A DNA stretch of 64,000 nt from Bacillota bacterium (GCA_021849745.1 JAJZSN010000003.1:891-64890), one strand, 5' to 3'; counted from the stretch's first letter, positions 4,658 through 52,024 are shown. Notes: generated by a model from the sequence alone, not told the origin. Made by a program: numbers and translations.

Positions 4658-5209
4658 ATGCATCCTGATGGCGAACGGATTCTTTTGTCTGAGGCGGATA
4701 TTAGCGCTAAGGTTAAAGAGATAGGTGAACAAATTTCAAGGGATTATGAAGGTAAAGAGTTATTGGTTATTGGCATTCTCAAGGGAGCCCTGATTTTTAT
4801 GGGTGACCTAGTGCGGCAGATAAACGTACCGGTGAGCCTGGATTTCATGGCTGTGTCCAGTTATGGGACTTCCACCGAATCTTCCGGTGCAGTACGGATT
4901 TTAAAAGATCTGGAGAAGAGCATTGAAGGGCAGCATGTTTTGATTGTGGAGGATATCATTGATACCGGGCTTACTCTGAAATACCTCTTGGAAAACCTCC
5001 AGGCCCGCAAGCCGGCCAGTGTCAAGGTCTGTACTTTGCTGGACAAGCCGGAAAGGCGCAAAACCCAGGTGGTGGCTGATTATAACGGTTTCAGCATTCC
5101 TGATGAGTTCGTAGTGGGTTACGGCCTGGACTACGCCGAGCGGTATCGGAATATTCCCTATATAATGGTGCTTAGGAGAGAAGTGTATGAGGTCAGGGGT
5201 GGCTTATAA
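4658..5209 (+). CDS. hpt: Hypoxanthine(-guanine) phosphoribosyltransferase
   Basis: PRPP loop LIVEDIIDTGLT and DFMAVSSYG. GGGGAGGA lies upstream of ATG 4658. The 45 extra N-terminal aa in the ORF track are not Hpt-like. Confidence 0.9.
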   Translation: MHPDGERILLSEADISAKVKEIGEQISRDYEGKELLVIGILKGALIFMGDLVRQINVPVSLDFMAVSSYGTSTESSGAVRILKDLEKSIEGQHVLIVEDIIDTGLTLKYLLENLQARKPASVKVCTLLDKPERRKTQVVADYNGFSIPDEFVVGYGLDYAERYRNIPYIMVLRREVYEVRGGL

Positions 5210-5254
5210 GCTTTACTATACCATCAGGGGTGGCTTAGAAGTCTTACTATACGG
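5193..5254. repeat. 31-bp tandem direct repeat, 2 copies, overlapping the hpt stop
   Basis: Copy 1 is TCAGGGGTGGCTTATAAGCTTTACTATACCA (5193-5223). Copy 2 is TCAGGGGTGGCTTAGAAGTCTTACTATACGG (5224-5254). A third start, TCAGGTG, follows at 5255. Confidence 0.85.
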
Positions 5255-5394
5255 TCAGGTGTTAGGGGTTAGGTTTTAGGGGTGAGGGTTGGGATTGTCT
5301 TGTATGTTGGGTTCGTAGTTCGTAGTTGTTAGTTGGTGATTCATAGTTTGTAGAATAAGCTGATAGCTGACAGCTGATAGCTGATAGCTGGCAA
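5255..5394. repeat. 140-nt tract of 20 heptamers in a single phase
   Basis: TTAGGGG-type units occupy 5255-5296 and GTTCGTA-type units 5311-5352. CTGATAG/CTGACAG units occupy 5360-5394. The distance 5255 to 5311 is exactly 8x7 nt. The tract runs into the guaA SD (GGGAGG). Confidence 0.9.
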
Positions 5395-5407: not shown

Positions 5408-6952
5408 ATGGATTTAGCAAGAGAAAGAGAACTGTTGCTGGTGCTGGATTTTGGTGGCCAGTATAGTCAGTTGATTGCGCGGAGGATTAGGGAGTGTAAG
5501 GTGTATTGTGAGATGCTGCCTTTTTCTACTTCCTTGACCAAGATTAAGGAATTGAATCCTAAGGGGATTGTGTTTTCCGGCGGGCCTTCCAGCGTTTACG
5601 GGGAGAAGGCGCCCAAGGTTGATCCGGGGGTTTTCGAGTTGGGGATTCCCATTCTGGGGATTTGTTATGGGCTGCAGTTGATGGCCCAAAACCTGGGGGG
5701 CACCGTTGAAGGGGCCGTCAACCGGGAGTATGGCAAAACCATGGTTCAGATTATTGAAGAAGATGAGATTCTTACCGGTTTAGGCCCGGAGACCCAGTGC
5801 TGGATGAGTCACGGTGATTTGGTGTCCGCCGTTCCTTCCGGGTTTATGGTAACCGCTAAGACCACCCACACTCCCGTGGCGGCCATGTGCTGCCGGGAGA
5901 AGAAGTTATACGGGGTGCAGTTCCATCCCGAAGTGGTTCACACCCCTAGGGGCAAGGAAGTGCTGGAGAAGTTTCTGTTCCAGGTCTGCGGGTGTTCCGG
6001 GGACTGGAACATGGGGTCTTTCATTGAACAATCCGTCCGGGAAATCCGGGAAAGGGTGGGGGACAAGAAGGTCCTTTGTGCTTTAAGCGGCGGGGTGGAT
6101 AGCTCTGTGGCGGCGGCTTTGGTTCATAAAGCCATCGGCGACCAGCTTACTTGTGTCTATGTTAACCATGGTTTTATGAGGAAGAATGAATCCCAGCAGG
6201 TTAGGGAAACCTTCGAGGGTAAGTTCCATATGAATCTGGATTTTGTGGATGCTGAAGAAAGGTTCCTGGGCAAGATTGCCGGGGTAACCGATCCGGAAAC
6301 TAAGCGGAAGATTATCGGTGAAGAGTTCATTCGTTTGTTCGAGGATGAGGCGGCTAAGCTTGGGCAGATTGATTACTTGGTGCAGGGAACCTTGTATCCC
6401 GATGTGGTTGAGAGCGGTACTGAGACTGCGGCGGTGATTAAGTCCCACCATAATGTGGGCGGACTGCCTGAGGATATGCAATTTGAGTTGATTGAGCCTT
6501 TGCGTTGGCTCTTTAAGGATGAGGTTCGTCTATTGGGCGAGGAACTGGGATTGCCGGAAGAGATCGTGTGGCGTCATCCCTTCCCTGGCCCTGGCTTGGC
6601 CATTCGGATCTTAGGGGAAATCACCAGAGAGAAGCTGGACACCCTGCGGGATGCAGATGCCATCATGGTGGAGGAGATTAAGAAGGCCGGGGAATACCGC
6701 AATATTTGGCAGGCTTTCGTGGTGCTGCCTTCCATGAAGAGCGTCGGGGTTATGGGTGATGAGCGGACTTATGCTTATACTGCAGTGGTACGGGCCGTCA
6801 CCAGCGATGACGGCATGACCGCCGACTGGGCCAGAATGCCTTATGATCTGATGGAGAGTATTTCTTCCAGGATTGTTAATGAGGTTAAGGGCATTAATCG
6901 GGTGGTCTATGATATCACCAGCAAGCCCCCTGGTACTATTGAGTGGGAATAA
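5408..6952 (+). CDS. guaA: GMP synthase (glutamine-hydrolysing)
   Basis: GATase1 motif GICYGLQ, ATP-pyrophosphatase motif SGGVDSS, and the C-terminal end ...PPGTIEWE. Confidence 0.97.
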
Positions 6953-7017
6953 GGCAAGAGGTGAATTTGGGTACTATTGAGCAGCGAAGGATGGCTTTGG
7001 GGGATCTTCAATTTAAA

Positions 7018-22926: not shown

Positions 22927-22955
22927 TTGACACCAAAAGAGCTTTTTGTTACTAT
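22927..22955 (+). promoter_or_regulatory. Sigma-A-type promoter for the riboswitch-permease transcript
   Basis: TTGACA (22927-22932), a 17-nt spacer ending in TGT, then TACTAT (22950-22955). Confidence 0.5.
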
Positions 22956-22975
22956 TTAAGTGAGGACAAGTAAAT

Positions 22976-23046
22976 ATCTCGTATAAGTTTGAGAATATGG
23001 CTCTTACGTTTCTACCGGGCAACCGTAAATTGCTCGACTACGGGGG
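22976..23046 (+). promoter_or_regulatory. Purine riboswitch aptamer, guanine/hypoxanthine class
   Basis: TATAA...AATATGG...GTTTCTACCGGGCAACCGTAAATTGCTCGACTACG matches the G-box core (L2 ATATGG, J2/3 GTTTCTACC, L3 CCGTAAAT). The specificity position in GACTAC is C. P1 pairs CTCGTA with TACGGG. Confidence 0.85.
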
Positions 23047-23218
23047 AAAACTGCTACGCCAAAGGAGAAAAACCCGGACGGATAGGATTCACTCGATTCT
23101 AAGGAGAGAAAAACCATCAGTTCGGGTATACTTTTTAGGAGGTGGTACATGGCTGGTCATTAGCCAGGTTAATTTTCCCTGTGGTTTTAAAAGACAGAAA
23201 GTGAGGAGGCTGAATTAC

Positions 23219-24583
23219 TTGTTTGAAAAGCTTTTTAAGTTGCGAGAGAACAATACTGATGTCAGAACTGAAATCATTGCAGGTTTAACCACTTTCATGA
23301 CCATGGCTTACATCCTGGCGGTCAACCCTTCTATTCTCTCAGGCACCGGGATGGATAAAAACGCAATTTTCTTCGCCACTGCCGTGGCCGCCGGTTTAAT
23401 CACTATTGCCATGGGTCTCTTTGTTAACTTCCCCATCGCGTTGGCGCCTGGTATGGGCTTGAACGCTTATTTTGCTGTTGTGGCGGCCCAGGGCACAGGT
23501 ATTATGTCCTGGCAAGTGGCCCTTGGAGCTATCTTTATTTCCGGTATTATTTTTGTTATTTTAACTGTAACTAACATACGCCAATTATTAATGGTGGCTG
23601 TTCCTAATTCCATTAAGAAGGCCATCACCGTTGGTATTGGTTTGTTTATCACTCTCATTGGACTTAAGATGTCTGGTATCACCAGTGTATTCTTGCACCT
23701 GGGTCCCAGCCTTGAGTCTATTGGGAAATCAGGTTTAGGAACCCCATTATTCTTTGAATGGGATATCAAGATGGGGGCTATCACCCACGGTGATGCTCTG
23801 CTGGCTCTTATTGGTTTGGCTATTACCGGTATCTTGATGGCCAGAAGAATAAAAGGGGCTTTGTTGTGGGGGATTTTGCTCACCACCCTCATCGGTATAC
23901 CCATGGGTATTACCAAGCTGGAAGGTTTGACCTTTGGCCTGCCCGATTTTTCTAATCTGGCAGTGGGTCAACTGGATATCATGGGCGCCATTAATTATGG
24001 AATCATCAGTGTGGTGCTGACCTTTACCTTTGTGGAGTTATTCGATGCCTTCGGAACCCTGGTGGGAACCGCCAATAAAGCCGGATTGCTTGATGAGAAG
24101 GGTAACAACCCAAAAATCGGTAAGGCCATGTTTGTAGACGCTTTCGGGGTCAGCTTCGGCTCCCTGCTGGGAACCAGTACGGTAACCGCTTATATCGAGA
24201 GTGCGGCCGGTATCGGTGAAGGCGGCCGCACCGGTTTAACCGCCGTAACCACCGGTATCTTGTTCTTATTAGCTCTGTTCCTGGCGCCTTTATTCTTGAT
24301 GATTCCTGGTGCTGCCACAGCTCCCGCCCTGATTATCGTAGGTGTGCTGATGGTGGGCGCTATCCGGGATATTGATTTCGATGATTTCACCGAGGCTATG
24401 CCTGCGTTCATGGTTATGGCCCTCATGCCTTTCACCTGGAATATCGCCAACGGAATCTCCGCCGGTATCGTATTCTATTCCATGCTGAAAACTGTTACCG
24501 GCAAGGCCAAAGAAGTTCACTGGCTTATGTGGTTGCTGACCATATTGATTGTAGGAAGATATCTTTTCTTGGGGGGGGAGTAA
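23219..24583 (+). CDS. Purine (guanine/hypoxanthine) permease, NCS2 AzgA/PbuG family
   Basis: LFEKLFKLRENNTDVRTEIIAGLTTFMTMAYILAVNP is the family's N-terminus. GAGGAGG lies upstream of TTG 23219. The preceding 74 ORF-track codons cover the riboswitch. Confidence 0.9.
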   Translation: MFEKLFKLRENNTDVRTEIIAGLTTFMTMAYILAVNPSILSGTGMDKNAIFFATAVAAGLITIAMGLFVNFPIALAPGMGLNAYFAVVAAQGTGIMSWQVALGAIFISGIIFVILTVTNIRQLLMVAVPNSIKKAITVGIGLFITLIGLKMSGITSVFLHLGPSLESIGKSGLGTPLFFEWDIKMGAITHGDALLALIGLAITGILMARRIKGALLWGILLTTLIGIPMGITKLEGLTFGLPDFSNLAVGQLDIMGAINYGIISVVLTFTFVELFDAFGTLVGTANKAGLLDEKGNNPKIGKAMFVDAFGVSFGSLLGTSTVTAYIESAAGIGEGGRTGLTAVTTGILFLLALFLAPLFLMIPGAATAPALIIVGVLMVGAIRDIDFDDFTEAMPAFMVMALMPFTWNIANGISAGIVFYSMLKTVTGKAKEVHWLMWLLTILIVGRYLFLGGE

Positions 24584-24587
24584 AAGA

Positions 24588-24763
24588 AGCTGTCAGCTGT
24601 CAGCTATCAGCTGTCAGCGGCGGGCTTGCATTTTGGGATTTTTCGGACTAGGGGCCGTTGGCCCCTGTCCAGTCTTATTATAACGTTGATAATTACCGCT
24701 TATAGCGGATTATATAGTTAATTTTTTAAGCTGACGGCTGACAGCTGATAGCTGACAGCTGAC
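24588..24763. repeat. Inverted heptamer-arm element: 27-bp perfect arms around a 118-nt loop
   Basis: The left arm (AGCTGTC)2-AGCTATC-AGCTGTC-AGC spans 24588-24618. The right arm AGCTGAC-GGCTGAC-AGCTGAT-(AGCTGAC)2 spans 24729-24763. Positions 24592-24618 are the exact reverse complement of 24737-24763. Confidence 0.95.
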
Positions 24764-24782
24764 CAACAAGGGAGGCGTGCAA

Positions 24783-26075
24783 GTGATAGATCGTTATACA
24801 CTGCCCGAGATGGGGCGGATTTGGGCTTTGGAAAATAAGTTTAGAAAATGGCTGGATATCGAGGTTGCGGCCTGTGAGGCCATGGCGGAATTGGGGAAAA
24901 TCCCTAAGGAAGCTGTTGAGGTTATTAAGGAAAAAGCTGATTTTAACGTAAAAAGAATAGAAGAAATTGAAGCTCAGACCAATCATGATGTGATCGCCTT
25001 TCTTACCTGTGTGGCTGAGTATGTGGGTGACGAGTCCAAATACATCCATCTGGGGATGACTTCCTCCGATGTAGGTGATACCGCCCTTTGTTTGCAGATG
25101 AAGGAAGCTGGAGAAGTGCTGCTGCCTAAGCTGGAAACTTTACGGGAAAAGATTAGGGAGAAGGCTAAAGAGCACAAGTATACCCCGATGATTGGCCGGA
25201 CCCATGGGATTCATGCCGAGCCAATGACCTTCGGGATGAAAATGCTCCTCTGGCTGGCTGAAACCGAAAGAAATATTGAGCGTTTAAAAAGGGCCATCGA
25301 GACCATCAGTGTGGGCAAAATCTCCGGTGCGGTGGGCACTTATGCTAATCTGGAGCCAACTGTGGAGGCTAAGGTTTGTGCTAAGTTAGGTCTTAAAGTC
25401 GCTCCCATTTCCACCCAGGTTATCCAGCGGGATCGCCATGCCGAGTACATGACTACCATGGCGGTGATAGCCAGTTCCCTTGATAAATTCGCCACTGAGA
25501 TTCGTAATCTTCAGCGGACGGATATCCGGGAAGTGGAGGAATTCTTCGGCAAGGGTCAAAAAGGTTCTTCCGCCATGCCTCATAAGCGGAATCCCATCAC
25601 CAATGAGCGGATTGCCGGTTTGGCCAGGGTGGTGCGGGGTAATGCCCAGGCGGCCCTGGAAAATGTTGCTCTGTGGCATGAAAGGGATATTACCCATTCT
25701 TCGGTGGAAAGGGTAATTGTTCCTGATAGCACCATATTGCTGGATTATATGCTTCATCTGATGATTAAGGTTATCAGCAATCTATTGGTTTATCCAGAGG
25801 CCATGTTGGAGAACATGAATAAGACCAGGGGGCTGATTTACTCTCAGCGGACTTTGCTGGCCCTGGTGGATAAGGGTATTCTCCGGGAAAGGGCTTATGA
25901 ACTGGTGCAGCGAAATGCTATGCAGGTCTGGGCCACTAAGGAAAACTTCCTTGATTTACTTTTAGCAGATTCCGATGTCATGGAATTAATTAGTGCCGAA
26001 GAACTTAAGGGTTTATTCGATCACTCATGGTATTTGCGCCATGTGGATGAGATTTTTACAAGATTTGGACTTTAG
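24783..26075 (+). CDS. purB: Adenylosuccinate lyase
   Basis: Signature [20 protein letters not shown] is a typical start. GGGAGG lies 7 nt before GTG 24783. Confidence 0.95.
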
Positions 26076-26076
26076 T

Positions 26077-26108
26077 AGCTGTCAGCTGTCAGCTATCAGC
26101 TGTCAGCT
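26077..26108. repeat. AGCTGTC/AGCTATC heptamer array directly after the purB stop
   Basis: AGCTGTC AGCTGTC AGCTATC AGCTGTC AGCT. The first 31 nt are identical to 24588-24618. Confidence 0.9.
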
Positions 26109-29508: not shown

Positions 29509-29526
29509 AGCTGTCAGCTGACAGCT
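29509..29526. repeat. Perfect 18-bp palindrome made of one AGCTGTC/GCTGACA pair
   Basis: AGCTGTCAGCTGACAGCT lies 5 nt after the purM stop and 8 nt before the purN SD. Confidence 0.9.
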
Positions 29527-29545
29527 CGACCGGAGGTAATACAGT

Positions 29546-31773: not shown

Positions 31774-31891
31774 TTAGCTGGTAGTTGGTAGCTGATAGCT
31801 GGTAGCCTTGAAAGACAACTTAAGGGTTCGGATAATGACCAAAGAGTTATCATTCAGGCTACAAGCTACAAGCTACCAGCTACAAGCTCCA
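31774..31891. repeat. Imperfect inverted heptamer arms (AGCTGGT type versus AGCTACA type) around a 48-nt loop
   Basis: The left arm spans 31774-31808 and the right arm 31857-31891. My hand alignment gives about 28 of 33 positions pairable, including one G-U. Confidence 0.85.
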
Positions 31892-31906
31892 ACAGGAGGG
31901 AAATAC

Positions 31907-39250: not shown

Positions 39251-39291
39251 TAATGTAATCTAGTAAAATAATTCCAATGGGGGCGGTTGGG

Positions 39292-39918
39292 ATGCTGGAA
39301 CGCTGGATAGCTAATAAAGCCACGGTTATGGCTCAAGAATTGGGCTATGATGATGATAAGCGGGAAGTGTTGCAGTACTCCATGACTATTCTGTCCACAA
39401 CCATTCTGGGTTTCCTGGCAATAGGTCTTGTGGGAGCTTTGGTTGGTGTGGCTGGACTGGCTTTAACTGCCGGACTCTCGGCTGGGATTCTTCGAGCCTA
39501 TTCTGGTGGCGCCCATGCCACTTCACCGATACGATGTAATGTGGTTGGAGTAATTATTTTTATCGGCATTGGTTTGGTAGCCAAGTATCTAAATGGGTGG
39601 GTAGAACCACTATGGTTGGTTATTCCTATTGCCTTATTAGGTTTTGGTTCGATTTATCTTTATGCTCCGGCTGAGGCTCCGGGTAAACCCATTCAGTCCA
39701 TGCTTAAAAGGGCTACTTTTCGTAGGATTTCTTTTAGCTTAATGGGGTTTTGGACCGGTATAGCCGGTTTTTTGGCGGTGAATTCCATGGCCCTGGATGG
39801 CTTTCTTGTGGCTAGCGCACTGGGGATTTGTTGGCAGAGTATATCTTTAACTCCTGCGGGTCATGGTTTGATAGGATTCCTGGATAAAGGTTTACAGTTT
39901 GGTAATAAAATATCATAA
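39292..39918 (+). CDS. agrB: AgrB-family autoinducer-prepeptide processing membrane protease
   Basis: AYSGGAHATSPIRC has His and Cys 7 residues apart, as in S. aureus AgrB H77/C84. There are multiple TM helices. Confidence 0.85.
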   Translation: MLERWIANKATVMAQELGYDDDKREVLQYSMTILSTTILGFLAIGLVGALVGVAGLALTAGLSAGILRAYSGGAHATSPIRCNVVGVIIFIGIGLVAKYLNGWVEPLWLVIPIALLGFGSIYLYAPAEAPGKPIQSMLKRATFRRISFSLMGFWTGIAGFLAVNSMALDGFLVASALGICWQSISLTPAGHGLIGFLDKGLQFGNKIS

Positions 39919-39988
39919 CCCCGTCACCCACGGTTTACATACTATCCTTGTTTCTATTGCTAAGCGAGTATTAAAAGGGGGAATTCTT

Positions 39989-40111
39989 GTGTTAACAAAA
40001 ATTGCTAATCGTTTGATGGCCTCAGCCCTGTTCGCTTTTGCTTTGTTTGATATCGGTATTGCCAGCGGTGTTATAACCTACCAACCGGAGGTGCCCAAAA
40101 GTCTAAGATAG
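39989..40111 (+). CDS. agrD: AgrD-type autoinducing-peptide precursor (40 aa)
   Basis: Amphipathic leader, then ...IGIASGVITYQPEVPKSLR. This aligns with C. perfringens AgrD ...TSACLWFTHQPEEPKSLRDE. AAAGGGGG lies 7 nt before GTG 39989. The ORF-track version begins too early. Confidence 0.75.
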   Translation: MLTKIANRLMASALFAFALFDIGIASGVITYQPEVPKSLR

Positions 40112-40147
40112 TATATTAAATTGAAATGGTGACGGGGTTAATAAAAT

Positions 40148-40639
40148 TTGGAGGTTTTAGTGTTGGATTTTCGCACAATTTTATTAATTTATTTTCCGGT
40201 AATGAGTTTAGCTGCTTATTCAGGTTTAGCCCTTCTAGGCATAAGAATAAAACTTGTCCCTGCTGTTTTGGCGGGCATAACTGCAGGAACCATGGACTAT
40301 TTCGTTAGGATGACCTACGTACCTTTAGGAATTCCTCCTCTTTTGGATTTGCCACTTATGGTACTAATTTTAGCAATAGTTTTAAAGTTTTTTACTAAAG
40401 AAAGTTGGATGGCAGTAACAGGAGGTAGTATTTTAAGCTACATTCTTATTTCTGTCGGTGATTTAGTTATTTTCCCAATGACATTAAGCATTTTAGGTAT
40501 TACAATAGAACAACTGGTTAAAGATATTTGGCTTGCCCTGATGGCGGGTTACGCAAATTCTTTATTGCTTATTATATCTAGTTTATTATCATTTTTTTAC
40601 AAGTTCAAAATAATAGATTTATCTAGTATGAGAAAGTAA
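40148..40639 (+). CDS. Polytopic membrane protein (about 5 TM), candidate detached AgrC sensor module
   Basis: Entirely hydrophobic helices with no soluble domain. It lies between agrD and the AgrC-like kinase. GTG 40160 (GGAGG 5 nt upstream) is an alternative start. Confidence 0.7.
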   Translation: MEVLVLDFRTILLIYFPVMSLAAYSGLALLGIRIKLVPAVLAGITAGTMDYFVRMTYVPLGIPPLLDLPLMVLILAIVLKFFTKESWMAVTGGSILSYILISVGDLVIFPMTLSILGITIEQLVKDIWLALMAGYANSLLLIISSLLSFFYKFKIIDLSSMRK

Positions 40640-40665
40640 ACGTTTGTAAAATTAGGTGGTGGCTC

Positions 40666-41541
40666 ATGGGAAATATTGATAAGATAAATAAAAAAGCATT
40701 AATCCTGGTTAATGTTATATTAGGCCAGACTTTATTGGTGGTATTTATTGTTACTTATAATAGGTTATGGATTGCCGATGAAATGATGAGAAGGGCGCCG
40801 GATGTCCTTATTACCGCAGTGTTTACTGTTGCAACCGTTATTCTAACGGCATTAGGGGTCTGGTTAATAAGGACTATTATGGAGATGGCTGCTAAAGAAG
40901 TTCAGGCTGAAGCCAACGAAGCCCGGTTAGAAGAAAGCTTGGAATTCATCGAAGTCCTGCGTTCGCACCGTCATGACTACCTTAACCATCTGCAGGTTAT
41001 ATCGGGATTACTGGATTTAGGGATGAATGACAGAGCCAAACAATATATCTGGGAATTGGCTAAAGATATTAAAGAAGAAAAAGGACTCCAATTGGCTGAC
41101 CATGCGGAAATCAATGCCCTCTTGGTCAAAAAATGGGCTCTTGCCGAGGTTAATAAGGTGGCTGTGTCTTTGGAAGTCACTGCAGATTTAAGAAGTATGA
41201 CCATACCTTCCTATGATTTAACCAGAATTCTTGGCAACCTTATTGAAAACGCCATTCAGGCTACCACTCAAGTGGATGAAAGCCAGAGAAAAGTTGAAGT
41301 TGGAATCCATGAGGATCCTACAAAATGGATATTTATTGTATTTAATCAGTTACCCATTATTCCCCTTGAAATGCAACAGAGGGTTTTTGAGAGGGGTTTT
41401 TCCACTAAAGGAACTGAGGGTAGGGGTCTAGGTTTGGATATAGTTTGCAATTTGTTGGAGAAATATAATGGAACCATTGATTTGGTGAGTAAGGACGGTC
41501 TTGGCACCGTTTTCACGGCGAAAATACCTAAGAAGCAATGA
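40666..41541 (+). CDS. AgrC-like (HPK10) histidine kinase with only 2 TM helices
   Basis: H-box LRSHRHDYLNHLQ (compare AgrC FRHDYVN). N-box ILGNLIENAIQA. G-box FSTKGTEGRGLGLDIV. Confidence 0.85.
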   Translation: MGNIDKINKKALILVNVILGQTLLVVFIVTYNRLWIADEMMRRAPDVLITAVFTVATVILTALGVWLIRTIMEMAAKEVQAEANEARLEESLEFIEVLRSHRHDYLNHLQVISGLLDLGMNDRAKQYIWELAKDIKEEKGLQLADHAEINALLVKKWALAEVNKVAVSLEVTADLRSMTIPSYDLTRILGNLIENAIQATTQVDESQRKVEVGIHEDPTKWIFIVFNQLPIIPLEMQQRVFERGFSTKGTEGRGLGLDIVCNLLEKYNGTIDLVSKDGLGTVFTAKIPKKQ

Positions 41542-43617: not shown

Positions 43618-44156
43618 ATGGCCGGCGGGGCGGTCCGGGAGTTGACCAGGTGCCCATGAAAGCCGATTTTGCCTGGGATGTGGAGGGTTTGCAGGCCGCT
43701 GCGGGGCGGGATGTGACCCGGGTGGTATTTCTCTGTTCCCCCAATAACCCCACAGGCGGGTGCCTTGACCGGGCTGCGTTGGAAGGGATTTTGGCGGCTG
43801 TGGCGGCCCTGGAAAACCGGGAGTATTTCAGGCCTCAGCTAGAGGCAATTATAGCGGGGCGTCAATGGTTGAGCGAAGAGTTAATCGGGATTGAGAGTGT
43901 GGAGGTTTTTCCTTCTAAAGCGAATTTCATTCTCTTCCGGGTGCCGGGCTGTGCCGGAGAAGTTTTCCGTAGGCTGGCAGAGGAGGGTGTTTTTATAAGG
44001 TATTTTAATGAGGCGCCGGGTTTGGAAAAATGTTTGCGAATTAGTGTCGGAAAAAAAGAGGATAATTCAGCTTTTGTAGAGAAAATTAGAAATATCTTAG
44101 GGCAGCTATCAGCTGTCAGCTATCAGCTAAAAAATAGGCGGGAAAGAAAGCGGTGA
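43618..44156 (+). pseudogene. hisC: Histidinol-phosphate aminotransferase remnant
   Basis: A 13-codon N-terminal stub (43618-43659) is in a different frame from the 168-aa ORF. That ORF joins ...VVFLCSPNNPTGG...LAAV directly to ...AALENREYF...PSKANFILFRV.... The DEAY and SK(PLP-Lys) segments are absent, as are about 140 N-terminal aa. Confidence 0.8.
44104..44128. repeat. AGCTATC/AGCTGTC heptamer array translated as the tail of the hisC remnant
   Basis: AGCTATC AGCTGTC AGCTATC AGCT encodes ...QLSAVSYQL.... Confidence 0.85.
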
Positions 44157-46085: not shown

Positions 46086-46204
46086 CTGTCAGCTATCAGC
46101 TATCAGCTGTCAGCCGATGGGGTATGCTTATCCCGTCAAATAAACTCCAGACATGTATTATAGCTATAAGCTACTGGCTATTAGCTAGAAAGCCAGCTAT
46201 AAGG
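46084..46204. repeat. Two heptamer arrays after hisA: AGCTGTC type (46084-46114) and AGCTATA/AGCTACT type (46161-46204)
   Basis: The first array begins inside the hisA TAG stop codon. The second contains the hairpin CTGGCT...AGCCAG. Confidence 0.85.
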
Positions 46205-46515
46205 TTTTCTCTTGCATGCATAGGTTGGGGTGTTTTGTGGAGCAACTTTTCATAAACGTGCGAGAGACAGCCCGTCGGATGCCGAGACATTACCCTAAAA
46301 GGGCGTATAGGTGCAGTCACCTCTCATTGAAGACGGCGGGGAACAAACCGGGTAGCTCTCGTGAAGCCTGAAAAGTTGAGCTAGTGAGGCTTCGAAGAAC
46401 AAAGTGATGAGGTAGCCTCACTTGTGCCGCGATACTTAAGGTGCATACTTGTAGGCGAACAAAATACCCCAACCGCCCGTACCAAAACCCCAAAGTAAAC
46501 AAGGAGCGAAAGCTT

Positions 46516-47296: not shown

Positions 47297-47379
47297 TCAG
47301 GGGTTAGGTTTTAGGGGTAAGGGTGGGGTATTCTTGGATGAAGGGTTCATAGTTCGTAGTTTATAGTTCGTAGATTAGG
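47297..47379. repeat. TTAGGGG-type then GTTCGTA-type heptamer tract; paralogue of 5255-5352
   Basis: CGGTCAGGGGTTAGGTTTTAGGGGTAAGGGTGGGGTATTCTTGGATGAAGGGTTCATAGTTCGTAGTTTATAGTTCGTAG aligns with 5252-5345 apart from one heptamer indel and scattered substitutions. Confidence 0.85.
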
Positions 47380-47584
47380 GAATTCACGAAAGACTTACCC
47401 GACTAATGGTTGGCATGCATAGCAGAACCGACCTTTTTGCACTGCACACCAGCACAAGGAAGGCTAAGGCTTGCTATCACCAGCCTAAGCCTTCCTAGCC
47501 CGAAGTGAGCTTAGTAGCACTGTGCCCGGAGCATGGGAGTGCGTTCAATTATCAACACCCCGCCCCAGTCAAAGATTCGTACAA

Positions 47585-47619
47585 AGCTAACGACTGACGA
47601 CTAACAGAATAAGAATACG
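47585..47619. repeat. AGCTAAC/GACTGAC heptamers running into the hisI SD
   Basis: AGCTAAC GACTGAC GACTAAC AGAATAA GAATACG, followed by AGGGAGA and ATG 47631. Confidence 0.7.
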
Positions 47620-47630
47620 AGGGAGACAAG

Positions 47631-48378: not shown

Positions 48379-49476
48379 ATGGATTTCTTTGGATCCGGTA
48401 AAGAGTTAATCTTTCTTAACGAGGTCATACGGGAACTAAGCTCAAGCTATCATTTTGATGATAATATTAATGCTCTTTTAATTAATGCGGCTACGGCTAC
48501 CATCAGTGAAGCCGGTTGTCTACTTACTGTAAATAATAACTATAAAAAGGGACGAATCACCGTTTTTGAAGTCTCGGCAACTTATGGAGGGATTAATCAT
48601 CGATGTCTGGACTTCTTAGCAAAAGAGAGTTTCTTTATTCAAAGTTTTCTTGAGAATCCTGTGAGTAGAATAGTGGACGGTGTTGAAAAACACTTTCTGC
48701 CTCTTAAATTAATGGATCCCTTATTACGTTCTATGTTAGTTGTTCCTATTGTTTTGGACAAGCGAGTTTTGGGCCTATTGATTTTGCTTCACCGACATCA
48801 AGGAAGGGAAGAACATTTACCCCAGTTTACGGAAAGGGATAGCCAATTGATGGGTATTTTGGCCCATCAGGCAGCCCTAATGATAGAGAACAACTATTTG
48901 AAGATGGAAAACCAGCGCCGCAGTTTATATCTCAAAACCATCACTGCTTTAAGTCAAGCTATAGAAGCCAAGGACATTTACACCAGAGGTCATTCGGAGC
49001 GAGTAGCAGCCCTGGCCACAGGGTTGGGTGCAGAGTTAAAATTATCTCCGGACGAAATAGCCAACATAAATTATGGGGCTTTGCTCCATGATGTAGGTAA
49101 AATTGGTATCAGTGAAGCTATTCTTAATAAAGAGGGTCGTTTGGATCCGGAAGAATACGAAATTATGAAAAAGCACCCTGAAATTGGCGCCAATATTTTG
49201 AGTGAAGTGGATTTTCTTGAGGATGCCCTGGATGTGGTGACACACCATCATGAGCGTATTGACGGGTCAGGCTACCCAAAGGCTCTGGTTCAAAAGGAGA
49301 TTCCCTTGGCGGCCAGGATTGTGGGGATTGCCGATGCTTGGGATGCTATGACTTCAGACCGGGCTTACCGGCAGGCTATGCCGGAAAATATGGCAGTAAA
49401 TCAGCTGCGCAGAGGGGCGGGTACTCAGTTTGATGCCTACCTTGTGGAAAGATTTCTTTGGATGGTACTTAGCTAG
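48379..49476 (+). CDS. GAF-domain / HD-GYP-domain protein (c-di-GMP phosphodiesterase type)
   Basis: HSERVA...LHDVGK...HHERIDGSGYP. GGAGG lies 7 nt before ATG 48379. Confidence 0.9.
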   Translation: MDFFGSGKELIFLNEVIRELSSSYHFDDNINALLINAATATISEAGCLLTVNNNYKKGRITVFEVSATYGGINHRCLDFLAKESFFIQSFLENPVSRIVDGVEKHFLPLKLMDPLLRSMLVVPIVLDKRVLGLLILLHRHQGREEHLPQFTERDSQLMGILAHQAALMIENNYLKMENQRRSLYLKTITALSQAIEAKDIYTRGHSERVAALATGLGAELKLSPDEIANINYGALLHDVGKIGISEAILNKEGRLDPEEYEIMKKHPEIGANILSEVDFLEDALDVVTHHHERIDGSGYPKALVQKEIPLAARIVGIADAWDAMTSDRAYRQAMPENMAVNQLRRGAGTQFDAYLVERFLWMVLS

Positions 49477-49478
49477 AA

Positions 49479-49630
49479 GTTAGAGGTTGGAGGTTCGAGG
49501 TTAGAAGGGTTTGGCTGGCAATGATTATTCTTTGAGATAGAATATATATAACTACGATATGCAATTCAGATGTACCCCTTGGGGGTTTTTTTATTAATCT
49601 AACCCCAAACTTCCAACCTCTAACCTCTAA
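49479..49630. repeat. Inverted heptamer arms of GTTNGAG type around a loop that contains a terminator-like hairpin
   Basis: The left arm GTTAGAG GTTGGAG GTTCGAG GTTAGAA GGGTTTG spans 49479-49513. The right arm CTAACCC CAAACTT CCAACCT CTAACCT CTAA spans 49599-49630. Positions 49479-49495 pair with 49608-49624 (17 bp, one G-U). Confidence 0.9.
49574..49592 (+). terminator. Short GC hairpin plus T7 inside the loop of the 49479-49630 element
   Basis: ACCCC-TTG-GGGGT followed by TTTTTTT. The stem is only 5 bp. Confidence 0.4.
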
Positions 49631-49647: not shown

Positions 49648-51831
49648 ATGTTAGGATTAGACAAGCTTAATTCGGCCCAGCAAGAGGCGGTTAGATGTAT
49701 AGACGGACCCCTTTTGGTTCTGGCTGGGGCGGGTAGTGGTAAGACCAGGGTATTGACCCATAGAATTGCTTATCTCTTGCACCAGGGGGTAGATCCCAGG
49801 AACATTATGGCCATTACCTTTACCAATAAGGCTGCCGGGGAGATGAAGGAGCGGGTGGAAAACCTCCTGGGTAGGGACAGCCGGGATATCTGGGTAATGA
49901 CTTTCCATTCAGCGTGTGTGCGAATTTTGCGTCAGGATATCGGTCATCTTGGTTATGACCGGAATTTTGTGATTTATGATAGCAGTGATGCCCAGACGGT
50001 GGTTAAAGAGTGTTTGAAGCAGTTAAATATGGATGATAAGCAGTACCCGCCACGGGCGGTGGCTGCCGCCATCAGTGATGCCAAGAACAAGCTGTTGAAT
50101 CCCGGGCAATACCGGAAGCAGGCTTATGATTTTTATACTCAGCGGGCTGCCGAAGTTTATCAACTTTACCAGAGTAAGCTGAAGCAGAATAACGCCTTGG
50201 ATTTTGATGATTTGATTATGTTGACGGTGCGGTTATTTAAAGAGCAGCCGCAGACTTTAGGCTACTACCAGCAGCGGTTTAAATATATTCTGGTGGACGA
50301 GTACCAGGATACCAATCATGCCCAGTATACCCTGGTCAATTTGTTGGCGGGCCGTCACCGCAATCTTTGTGTGGTGGGGGATGCCGACCAGAGTATCTAT
50401 AAGTTCCGGGGGGCGGATATTCAGAATATCCTGGATTTTGAAAAGGACTACCCCGAGGCCAGGGTTATCATGCTGGAGCAGAATTACCGTTCTACCCAGC
50501 GGATTCTGGATGCAGCCAATAGTGTTATCAAGCTTAATATGGGCCGCAAGGATAAAAAATTATGGACTGAAAACGGAGAGGGTATTCCCGTGGTGCGGTT
50601 CAGGGCCAATGACCAGCGGGAAGAAATAGCTTTTGTCGCCGACCGGATTAAGAAACTGATGGAGCGGGAGAAGAAAGGGTATAAGGATTTTGCGGTGCTT
50701 TACCGGACCAATGCCATGTCCCGGGCGGTTGAGGAAGTCTTCATGATGGCCCGGATTCCTTACACCATAGTCGGGGGCCTGAAGTTCTATGAGCGTAAGG
50801 AAATTAAAGATATTCTTGCTTACCTGCGGTTTATCCTTAATCCTGCCGACAGTGTTTCTTTACGGAGGATTATTAATGTCCCCAAGCGGGGTATCGGGGA
50901 TACTTCCTTTGGTAAAATTGTTGACTTTGCCATAGATAAAGGGATTACCGTCTATGAGGCTATGGGGCAGGTGGAGACCATTCCCGGTCTGACGGCCAGA
51001 ACCACCAAGCCGGTGAAAGAGTTTACGGCCTTGGCGGAAAAGCTGCAGGAGGCCAGGGAACAGTTGATTGTTACCCAACTTATTGACATGGTGCTAAGGC
51101 AGTCGGGTTATCAAGCTGAATTGGAGCAGGAAAAAACGGTGGAAGCTCAGACCCGGCTGGAGAACTTAAAGGAATTCCGTACCGTAACCAAGGAATTTGA
51201 TGAGACCGCCGAGGAGAAGACCCTTGAGGAGTTTCTGGCGGGGATTTCCCTTAAATCGGACTTAGATAACCTGGAGGAAGGGGATGATGCAGTGGTCCTC
51301 ATGACCCTGCACAGCGCCAAGGGGTTGGAGTTTCCGGTGGTGTTCATGGTGGGCATGGAGGAGATGATTTTCCCCCATTCCAGGTCTATGATGGACGAGG
51401 CTGAATTGGAGGAGGAGCGGCGTCTGTGCTATGTGGGCATTACCCGGGCCAGGGAGCGGTTGTACATGACCCACGCCTGGCAGCGGACCCTTTACGGTAA
51501 TGCCCAATATAACCCGGCTTCCCGGTTCCTGGAGGAGATTCCGGAGGATTTGATAACTACCCATGACCCCTTGGACGGGGCGGCTGAGCCGGCGGTTAAA
51601 AAGGGTGTATTTCCTGCCGGAGGTTCTGTCCAACCGAAGGCGGCCGGGGTTAAAGAGCCTGCTGCAACGGGGCAATATGCCTTGGGGGACAAGGTGGAGC
51701 ACGCTAAGTTCGGTCAGGGGGTAATTGTCAGTGTGAAGGGTTCGGGCGATGATGCCGAACTTAGTATAGCTTTCCCCGGCGCCGGGGTGAAGATGTTTAT
51801 TGCTAAGTATGCACCGCTGAGGAAGGCATAG
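49648..51831 (+). CDS. pcrA: ATP-dependent DNA helicase PcrA (UvrD/Rep family)
   Basis: GAGSGKT, DEYQDTN, VGDADQSIY and TLHSAKGLEF motifs. 727 aa. Confidence 0.97.
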   Translation: MLGLDKLNSAQQEAVRCIDGPLLVLAGAGSGKTRVLTHRIAYLLHQGVDPRNIMAITFTNKAAGEMKERVENLLGRDSRDIWVMTFHSACVRILRQDIGHLGYDRNFVIYDSSDAQTVVKECLKQLNMDDKQYPPRAVAAAISDAKNKLLNPGQYRKQAYDFYTQRAAEVYQLYQSKLKQNNALDFDDLIMLTVRLFKEQPQTLGYYQQRFKYILVDEYQDTNHAQYTLVNLLAGRHRNLCVVGDADQSIYKFRGADIQNILDFEKDYPEARVIMLEQNYRSTQRILDAANSVIKLNMGRKDKKLWTENGEGIPVVRFRANDQREEIAFVADRIKKLMEREKKGYKDFAVLYRTNAMSRAVEEVFMMARIPYTIVGGLKFYERKEIKDILAYLRFILNPADSVSLRRIINVPKRGIGDTSFGKIVDFAIDKGITVYEAMGQVETIPGLTARTTKPVKEFTALAEKLQEAREQLIVTQLIDMVLRQSGYQAELEQEKTVEAQTRLENLKEFRTVTKEFDETAEEKTLEEFLAGISLKSDLDNLEEGDDAVVLMTLHSAKGLEFPVVFMVGMEEMIFPHSRSMMDEAELEEERRLCYVGITRARERLYMTHAWQRTLYGNAQYNPASRFLEEIPEDLITTHDPLDGAAEPAVKKGVFPAGGSVQPKAAGVKEPAATGQYALGDKVEHAKFGQGVIVSVKGSGDDAELSIAFPGAGVKMFIAKYAPLRKA

Positions 51832-51832
51832 C

Positions 51833-52024
51833 AGCTGTCAGCTATCAGCTATCAGCTGTCAGCAGGCGGGCTGAACTTTTTGGTCGTTTTGCGGAGGGAT
51901 TATTTCTGGAACTACAAAGTGAGTATACGGAATTTTATTCTAAATTTAACGTAATCTTTTAAAATTTTTAAGCTAACAGCTGACAGCTGACAGCTGATAG
52001 CTAAAAAAACAGCTGATAGCTACT
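51833..52024. repeat. Inverted heptamer-arm element, sibling of 24588-24763
   Basis: The left arm AGCTGTC AGCTATC AGCTATC AGCTGTC AGC spans 51833-51863. The right arm AGCTAAC (AGCTGAC)2 AGCTGAT AGCT...AGCTGAT AGCTACT spans 51971-52024. Positions 51847-51863 are the exact complement of 51986-52002 (17 bp). Confidence 0.9.

Follow-up and report, generated by a model that had tools for sequence, protein, structure and literature searches.

Opposed heptanucleotide arrays in the permease-purB spacer belong to an intergenic repeat family of a Thermincolia lineage and are predicted to form mRNA hairpins

Small REP/BIME elements are scattered between the genes of enterobacteria; they have inverted termini, are co-transcribed with their neighbors and uncouple cistrons, and their hairpins can be RNase III targets or shield the transcript. 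They can also contain promoter-like sequence. Heptanucleotide repeats of the STRR (short tandemly repeated repetitive) type are said to have been described for heterocystous cyanobacteria by Mazel et al. in 1990, and structured nif intergenic regions of cyanobacteria reportedly by Jackman and Mulligan in 1995. In Nostoc PCC 7120, heptamer repeats lie near start codons (bioRxiv 10.1101/2022.06.06.494920). Direct repeats of TAACTGA occur in marine Beggiatoaceae and in some Cyanobacteria and Bacteroidetes (MacGregor 2015, PMC4679880). In the summary given there, the survey of long simple sequence repeats (LSSR) of 5-11 nt units by Mrazek et al. 2007 found heptanucleotides to be the most abundant and the rich genomes to be phylogenetically scattered (PMC4679880). 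The Correia elements of Neisseria are small, dispersed and intergenic, with inverted termini; they are co-transcribed and uncouple cistrons, their hairpins can be cut by RNase III or can protect the transcript, and they may carry promoter-like sequence (PMC2649163). The present report concerns a 64,000-nt stretch of DNA from a Bacillota bacterium (GCA_021849745.1 JAJZSN010000003.1:891-64890; hereafter the window) and, within it, an element at 24588-24763 in the spacer between a xanthine/uracil-family permease gene and purB. All coordinates are positions within the window, on one strand, unless a contig is named. By its purB homologues the host is an uncultured Thermincolia bacterium. The inverted arms of the element are opposed (RTCAGCT)4 copies of a lineage-specific family of intergenic heptamers with fast turnover, which probably form intercistronic mRNA hairpins with a modulatory role. 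The spacer and its flanks contain the following features:

23219-24583, + strand: xanthine/uracil-family permease gene with a TTG start codon behind GAGGAGG and its TAA stop codon at 24581-24583 (Pfam PF00860, E = 1.5e-41)
24588-24618, + strand: left heptamer array, AGCTGTC x4.4 (RTCAGCT units), with the perfect 27-nt arm at 24592-24618 (TRF)
24729-24763, + strand: right heptamer array, AGCTGAC x5, with the perfect 27-nt arm at 24737-24763 (TRF)
24783-26075, + strand: purB, adenylosuccinate lyase gene (TIGR00928, E = 5e-172)
26077-26108, + strand: third array copy, starting from the purB stop codon; a direct repeat of 24588-24618, inverted relative to 24737-24763

The reverse complement of 24737-24763 is identical to 24592-24618 (GTCAGCTGTCAGCTATCAGCTGTCAGC), and the two arms enclose a loop of 118 nt, as the original prediction had stated. 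If mismatches are allowed, the arms grow to 36 nt with 89% complementarity (24592-24627 / 24728-24763). The order stop codon, arm, loop, opposed arm, Shine-Dalgarno (SD) sequence also holds, but with corrected distances: the perfect left arm begins 8 nt past the permease TAA (5 nt had been claimed) and the right one terminates 6 nt 5' of the SD GGGAGG at 24770-24775 (7 nt had been claimed). The start codon of purB is GTG at 24783 (MIDRY...). Both arms lie within tandem arrays of period 7, which TRF reports with 85-91% matches and 4.4 and 5.0 copies, respectively; the left array begins 4 nt past the TAA. The element is flanked by AAGA and CAAC. A third copy of the identical 27-mer is located at 26081-26107, right behind the purB stop codon, and the perfect complementarity of the arms is thus explained by the identity of the copies. 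A 13-mer from the arm has 33 matches in the window (two mismatches or fewer) versus 0.47 expected, so the recurrence is not due to chance. As a consequence for purB itself, an identical 31-nt direct repeat flanks the gene (24588-24618 and 26077-26107) and the right arm (24737-24763) is also perfectly complementary to the copy at 26081-26107; through such repeats, purB could be deleted, duplicated or inverted.

The predicted fold of the RNA of 24575-24795 agrees with the proposed duplex. In it the 27-bp stem is formed without interruption and closes the loop, with an energy of -99.5 kcal/mol versus -63.8 +/- 4.5 for shuffled sequences (z = -7.9), and the SD at 24770-24775 is left unpaired. The left array alone is predicted to form a local hairpin of 10 bp (-17.5 kcal/mol), because its CAGCTG core is palindromic; for single RTCAGCT arrays the predicted self-fold is -17.5 to -18.2 kcal/mol.

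The arms are copies of a dispersed family of heptamer arrays that recurs in numerous spacers of the window. Fifteen period-7 arrays were found in the window versus 0.2 in composition-matched shuffles, and periods 5, 6 and 8-11 showed no excess of arrays over shuffles there. All 15 arrays are intergenic and lie between genes of the same strand, in a window of 64 kb with about 8 kb of intergenic DNA. Nearly all genes of the window are on one strand, and the polarities of transcription and replication are therefore inseparable in it. The edges of the arrays are separated from stop codons by 0-5 nt and from SDs by 0-8 nt. Arrays occupy the hpt-guaA spacer, nearly all spacers of purB-C-F-M-N-H-D, those of hisC'-hisB, hisA-hisF and hisF-hisIE, and those between a regulator gene and pcrA and between pcrA and an inorganic pyrophosphatase (PPase) gene.

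The family is restricted to one lineage. The purB of the window shares 97% amino acid and 88.6% nucleotide identity with that of the metagenome-assembled genome (MAG) GCA_054636335.1 (contigs L121 and L145), and 93% and 82.7% with that of a Joint Genome Institute contig (L123 and L146). The window, L121 plus L145 and L123 plus L146 represent three close, array-rich genomes with a total of 147 kb, in which 38 period-7 arrays are present. The amino acid identity is about 82% to Thermincola and about 82-83% to the loci L124 and L126. These two and L125 (Thermincola ferriacetica), about 19 kb each, are array-poor: one array was found in L124, none in L125 and one in L126, and their purE-purB and purB-purC spacers measure 12-70 nt and contain no such hairpins. 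The close relatives being rich in arrays and the distant ones compact, the repeats are therefore viewed as a recent, lineage-specific invasion of once compact gaps. L122, a 5.4-kb contig from a sequencing run of a close relative, ends inside arrays on both sides (1-31 and 5337-5370); assemblers evidently break at heptamer arrays.

The other arrays and array pairs of the window are:

5253-5393, + strand: three successive arrays (GGTTAGG, GTTCGTA, AGCTGAT) occupying the hpt-guaA spacer up to the SD
29510-29527, + strand: palindrome of 18 nt between purM and purN, AGCTGTCAGCTGACAGCT, made of two opposed units and located within about 28 nt missing from L121
30143-30208, + strand: GTAGCTG and GTTCGTA arrays across the purN stop codon into the purH SD
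31775-31892, + strand: inverted pair TAGCTGG / GCTACAA between purH and purD (predicted fold -60 kcal/mol, z = -8.6)
44103-44130, + strand: RTCAGCT array after a hisC remnant and 5' of hisB, conserved in L145
46082-46116, + strand: RTCAGCT array at the hisA stop codon
47295-47377, + strand: composite GGTTAGG and GTTCRTA arrays after hisF, 72% identity to the module at 5266-5337
49474-49630, + strand: inverted pair TAGAGGT / AACCTCT between an HD-GYP-type regulator gene and pcrA, enclosing the terminator-like hairpin ACCCCTTGGGGGT followed by T7
51831-52004, + strand: inverted pair of RTCAGCT and AGCTGAY arrays, the second of this unit in the window, in the spacer from pcrA to the PPase gene

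RTCAGCT-related arrays outside the permease-purB region lie at 5357, 29510, 44103, 46082, 51831 and 51970; the other units of the window are GGTTAGG, GTTCGTA, GTAGCTG/TAGCTGG, GCTACAA, and TAGAGGT with its complement. Four inverted pairs (24588/24763, 31775/31892, 49474/49630 and 51831/52004) have the layout stop - array - loop - array' - SD and are predicted to form long stems. Many arrays of the window are single.

Comparison of orthologous spacers revealed rapid turnover. Of the permease-purB region, L121 retains the coding sequences on both sides and the central GC hairpin, and the remainder of the spacer is replaced, with TTAGTCG units after the stop codon and a local hairpin of about 24 bp (TAGTTCT/CTATGAA-type units) just 5' of the SD; the site thus differs by replacement, not by simple presence or absence. 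Filled and empty sites were observed at three other spacers. The PPase-amj spacer measures 12 nt in the window and 11 nt in L146 versus 92 nt in L145, where a hairpin element is present, the purM-purN spacer 14 nt in L121 versus 42 nt with the 18-nt palindrome in the window, and the hisF-hisIE spacer 20 nt in L146 versus 173 nt in L145 and 353 nt in the window. The RTCAGCT array between purB and purC is kept in L121 at the same place, with a divergence that is roughly background. An inverted array pair is located between purH and purD in all three array-rich genomes, in spacers of 133, 132 and 123 nt, and is built from three different units (TAGCTGG; TAGTTCA/G; TAGGGGT/TAGGTTT) with predicted folds of z = -8.6, -7.0 and -4.0, respectively. 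The architecture is thus conserved at this spacer while the sequence has been replaced wholesale, which is the best evidence here that the hairpin is either favoured at this place or installed as a unit.

These comparisons bear on the role that the original prediction had assigned to the duplex, that of an intercistronic processing or insulation site. A predicted duplex of 27 bp is in principle long enough for RNase III, and cleavage of the permease-purB duplex is plausible. The uninterrupted stem, its placement exactly between stop codon and SD, and a plausible co-transcription from the riboswitch promoter (see below) would all suit a dedicated RNase III site that was selected at this position. 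Such a site is nevertheless improbable: the duplex is not conserved in L121, the closest relative, three distant relatives run the operon without hairpins, and the arms are generic dispersed copies, of which a third identical one lies 1.3 kb away. The part of the claim that gained support is the suitability, in principle, of the duplex as a substrate, not the existence of an evolved site.

Filled and empty orthologous sites (PPase-amj, purM-purN, hisF-hisI) would also be expected if the element were a non-autonomous mobile element, similar to a miniature inverted-repeat transposable element (MITE), with heptamer arrays as its termini, a position between stop codon and SD that is solely tolerated, and effects on RNA as a by-product. 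Terminal inverted repeats of 27-36 bp, the identical 27-mers, and the breakage of the short contig of a relative at arrays on both ends are in line with this, as is the single, strand-symmetric polarity of all inverted pairs (see below), expected of element ends. A 72-nt module (GGTTAGG array, 15-nt spacer, GTTCRTA array) recurs with 72% identity in distant spacers at 5266-5337 and 47300-47371, so whole modules, and not single units alone, were copied between loci. The pair at 51831-52004 resembles that at 24588-24763 in the arms and in about 20-30 subterminal nt inside each arm; its loop, however, is unrelated, and a conserved core is lacking. No clear target-site duplication is visible; at the filled PPase-amj site of L145 a 2-nt duplication (GG) is possible, with an ambiguous junction. 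The empty PPase-amj site already reads TAGCTGG (stop codon plus 4 nt), which is the unit expanded in L145 and suggests local seeding and slippage over insertion. Family scans of the window proteins yielded no transposase linked to the arrays, and no candidate repeat-binding protein. A metagenome scan with the subterminal motif CAGCTGTCAGC(N)GGCGGGCT gave 18 matches, all of them chance matches in DNA of 55-72% GC without arrays, and thus no further copies of the element. With many arrays single in addition, a mobile element of this kind is possible, but somewhat unlikely.

The loop of the permease-purB element contains two further features:

24645-24670, + strand: inner GC-rich hairpin without a U-tract (predicted energy, conservation in L121)
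24686-24713, + strand: weak promoter-like site with TTGATA-16-GATTAT, within the 3' half of the loop, which is rich in AT (promoter scan)

An 11-bp GC hairpin in the loop had been predicted and is present, at 24645-24670 and not at 24653-24678. It has the sequence GGAC-U-AGGGGCC GUU GGCCCCU GUCC with one bulged base and a predicted energy of -21 kcal/mol (z = -4.3). It is the only part of the spacer that is conserved in L121, where it is kept with changes that preserve base pairing (A-U to G-C in the inner stem). No U-tract follows it in the window (tail AGTCTTATTAT) or in L121 (tail TTATCCCGGG), and it was not called in the terminator scan. Promoter-like sites in this region do not exceed the number in shuffled sequences (12 versus 13.4 expected), the promoter and terminator scans being non-discriminating in this region; a promoter at 24686-24713 is a mere possibility.

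These features are the basis for a reading with separate transcripts, in which a permease terminator and an independent pur promoter lie within the spacer, the left arm belongs to the permease 3' UTR and the right one to the purB 5' UTR, the duplex never forms in cis and the arms form local hairpins at most. It is consistent with the conserved GC hairpin followed by a promoter-like sequence, with the self-folding of each RTCAGCT array and with comparable elements that enclose hairpins with T-runs. In the regulator-pcrA spacer, a terminator-like hairpin with a T-run is present in all three genomes (window 49574-49595; L145 9788-10000; L146 9770-10000) and is enclosed by inverted arrays of different units in the window and in L146, with only a short left array in L145. 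The inner hairpin of the permease-purB spacer, in contrast, has no U-tract in either the window or L121, and the promoter-like sites do not rise above the shuffle expectation. A second riboswitch or recognisable purine control before purB is also missing, and in relatives purE-purB follows the riboswitch or the permease without another gene in between. Separate transcripts are therefore considered unlikely.

The evidence on the transcription unit starts upstream of the permease:

22959-23060, + strand: purine riboswitch aptamer 5' of the permease gene (Rfam RF00167, 79.8 bits, E = 1.2e-12)

A promoter-like sequence, TTGACA-17-TACTAT, is located upstream of the riboswitch at 22927-22955. The aptamer is the sole riboswitch of the locus; L121 and L123 likewise contain one, in the same position. 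The genes 3' of it are, in order, permease, (spacer), purB, purC, purF, purM, purN, purH and purD, and a canonical hairpin-plus-T terminator is located behind purD. Because the sole riboswitch lies 5' of the permease and the terminator after purD, one riboswitch-controlled transcript from permease to purD is the most economical reading, and co-transcription of the permease and pur genes from the riboswitch promoter appears plausible from this arrangement. The missing U-tract behind the inner hairpin speaks indirectly for both arms being on one transcript, the promoter-like site in the loop indirectly against it. The purB product of 430 amino acids is 100% identical over its full length to an equally long database protein.

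In four relatives, purE is located directly upstream of purB (L123 9383-9904, L124 8418-8939, L125 8056-8577, L126 8464-8988), between purB and the permease or purL gene. Neither the window (24584-24782) nor L121 (9811-10000) has the gene there, and tblastn detected no purE in the 64-kb window or in the 21 kb of L121. An assembly artefact was considered as the cause and rejected, as the independent MAG contig L121 has the same order without purE; the gene was either relocated elsewhere or its step of purine synthesis was lost.

Arrays of this kind are not confined to the lineage. A scan for (RTCAGCT)4 with one genome per species returned at least 120 loci; the matches listed come from Acidobacteriota, Gemmatimonadota, Chloroflexota, Planctomycetota, Bacteroidota, Vibrio, Pseudoalteromonas, a Peptococcaceae MAG and filamentous cyanobacteria (Moorena, Trichodesmium, Microcoleus). 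Among them, 388 period-7 arrays of many units are present in 851 kb, so the matches come from heptamer-rich genomes, with arrays of up to 125 nt in Pseudoalteromonas. Examples are L012 4895-5072, L020 2621-2837, L070 3668-3778 and L073 1-125. Most arrays among the matches listed are single, and inverted pairs occur at three loci; those read at L012 and L020 lie between genes of the same strand and adjoin stop and start codons.

The inverted pairs have one polarity. In five of five RTCAGCT pairs (two in the window and, among the matches listed, one in each of three other phyla) RTCAGCT comes first and AGCTGAY second, and in all eight non-palindromic pairs of the Thermincolia genomes, from five independent spacers, the TAG-containing array is the 5' arm. 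Reverse complementation leaves this order intact, which is therefore a feature of the element and independent of gene direction; the predicted stability of the stem is equal for either polarity. TAG (or CAG) is constant in 29 of the 38 arrays of the clade, with the other four positions varying. In the heptamer arrays of other phyla, a TAG anchor or enrichment is not general.

Arrays often begin at, or supply, the stop codon, as at purB and purN in three of three genomes each. Slippage may have been seeded at stop codons, or only units containing a stop may be tolerated at gene ends; RTCAGCT arrays contain no stop codon on the sense strand and are covered by neither reading. For the same reason, a role of TAG units as back-up stops in three frames was rejected: it fits the TAG-type 5' arms and the stop-supplying arrays, but not the RTCAGCT arrays.

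The invariant triplet recalls Bacillus HutP, which binds NAG triplets spaced by 4 nt. The arrays could accordingly serve as periodic binding sites in which an oligomeric protein with affinity for RNA or DNA recognises YAG once per 7 nt, with the complementary arms as masking anti-sites. TAG/CAG is the constant element of most clade arrays and is displayed by the 5' arm of every inverted pair; however, the family scans of the window proteins gave no candidate, and the anchor is not common to the arrays of other phyla, so that this explanation is very unlikely. Equally unlikely is its extension to a genome-wide post-transcriptional code, in which UAG/CAG once per 7 nt would be read by a HutP- or TRAP-like oligomer, the 3' arms would mask the sites in read-through RNA, and the fixed polarity across three phyla would reflect either that machinery or a dedicated recombinase. 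If this were true, array-flanked hairpins would control dozens of operons together, at the level of termination, processing or translation.

The preferred reading, that of repeat arrays forming modulatory intercistronic hairpins, can be described as follows. Arrays have spread into the short gaps between stop codon and SD in operons whose counterparts in related genera are compact, and two opposed arrays of one unit yield a MITE-like hairpin element. At the locus under study, the riboswitch-controlled transcript most likely extends from the permease into purB-purD. During its synthesis the left array would fold on itself first (-17.5 kcal/mol), followed by the conserved GC hairpin, which probably acts as a pause or leaky stop or else stabilises the permease 3' end. 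In read-through RNA the right array would pair with the left one to give the 27-bp duplex, 6 nt before the free SD. The duplex would be a barrier to 3'-5' and 5'-3' exonucleases, would halt ribosomes running past the stop codon, and is probably a substrate for a double-strand-specific RNase; the net outcome would be that permease and pur cistrons are uncoupled in stability and translation. A hairpin in the mRNA of the permease-purB spacer is likely on the predicted folds. Since the nearest relative lacks the duplex and distant ones have a compact operon, the effect of the duplex is probably modulatory, not essential, and secondary to the spread of the repeats.

Several points weigh against this reading. 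It presupposes co-transcription, folding in vivo and, for its last steps, some form of processing. The 27-bp long-range duplex was not found at the orthologous site of L121, and the loop in the window contains the promoter-like site at 24686-24713. In two comparable elements the loop hairpin is followed by a T-run and resembles a real terminator; in these, and possibly at permease-purB too, the two arms may be on different transcripts. In six of seven hairpins the predicted fold of the sense strand is more stable than that of the antisense strand, a preference that is confounded by a strong GC skew and suggests selection at the RNA level weakly at best. A plain hairpin model, finally, predicts neither that the pairs have a fixed polarity nor that TAG is invariant.

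With respect to the systems named at the outset, the arrays consist of tandem 7-nt units in many dispersed intergenic copies, close to start codons and of patchy occurrence, and thus belong to the class of dispersed intergenic heptanucleotide tandem repeats (STRR / LSSR / TAACTGA). The units of the clade (RTCAGCT, TAGCTGG, TAGTTCG, TAGGGGT, TAGAGGT) equal none of CCCCAGT, TTGGTCA, CAACAGT or TAACTGA, so they represent the same class but not the same named family. Cyanobacterial STRRs resemble the Thermincolia arrays in their tandem 7-nt units, in the presence of several unit families per genome, in their intergenic location near start codons and inside operons, and in the formation of hairpins by opposed copies. 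The Thermincolia arrays differ from them in a Firmicute host (class Thermincolia), in other units, in the TAG anchor of most arrays and in the fixed polarity of the pairs. TAACTGA repeats are also heptamer arrays (2-6 units) right upstream of start codons, patchy and absent in close relatives, and TAACTGA is one mismatch away from TAGCTGA, the reverse complement of ATCAGCT. In BOGUAY, however, they are almost all direct, of a single heptamer and in one orientation, and overlap the ribosome-binding region of genes without an SD (PMC4679880), whereas the Thermincolia arrays have many units, commonly inverted pairs, and canonical SDs kept just outside the arrays. The at least 120 loci of the RTCAGCT scan, from many phyla, match the scattered heptanucleotide-rich genomes of Mrazek et al. 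2007, whose survey, in the account given in PMC4679880, offers statistics and a proposal of polymerase slippage and no stop-to-SD hairpin elements. Correia elements are characterised by ends of a defined 26 bp, a core that is conserved and a duplicated TA target (PMC2649163); the Thermincolia elements have tandem-heptamer termini, no conserved core and no evident duplication.

Some neighboring sequences of the array-bearing operons are also described here. A 31-nt unit (TCAGGGGTGGCTTAKAAG..TTACTATAC) is tandemly duplicated at 5193-5254 over the 3' end of hpt (end of the open reading frame at 5209), immediately 5' of the three heptamer arrays. The hisC remnant of the window (43650-44156), located between hisD and hisB, comprises only the C-terminal third (profile positions 248-349 of 349), and its reading frame continues through the RTCAGCT array; L145 and L146 retain even less, in gaps of about 280 nt, and the gene appears to be in decay throughout this clade. 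Long non-coding stretches lie inside the his operon 3' of heptamer arrays, at 46116-46515 (about 400 nt) and 47378-47630 (about 250 nt); neither has an Rfam match at E <= 1, and they are unrelated to each other by pairwise alignment. By eye, a block of 46116-46515 (roughly AAGGGCGTAWAGGTGCAGTCACCTCTC...AAGACGG...AAGCCTGAAAAGTTG and TACCCCAACCGCCC) recurs in L145 at 6780-7003, and could be a structured RNA of a new type or a gene remnant. An agr-like quorum-sensing cluster (39277-41541; AgrB family protein, small open reading frames, GHKL histidine kinase) is located between hisZ and hisG, with the same synteny in the relatives.

With these observations a single hairpin becomes part of a genome-wide phenomenon, that of a Firmicute lineage whose intergenic gaps were overrun by heptanucleotide arrays, in likeness to some cyanobacteria and giant sulfur bacteria. 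For annotation this is a warning in two respects: a long perfect stem in a genome of this kind is a copy of a repeat, not a conserved processing site, and assemblies break at heptamer arrays. The comparison of three genomes adds a hairpin kept with its unit swapped, filled and empty sites, one polarity and a common TAG, and thereby provides handles for the question of whether such arrays are selfish DNA, products of slippage or regulatory RNA structures.

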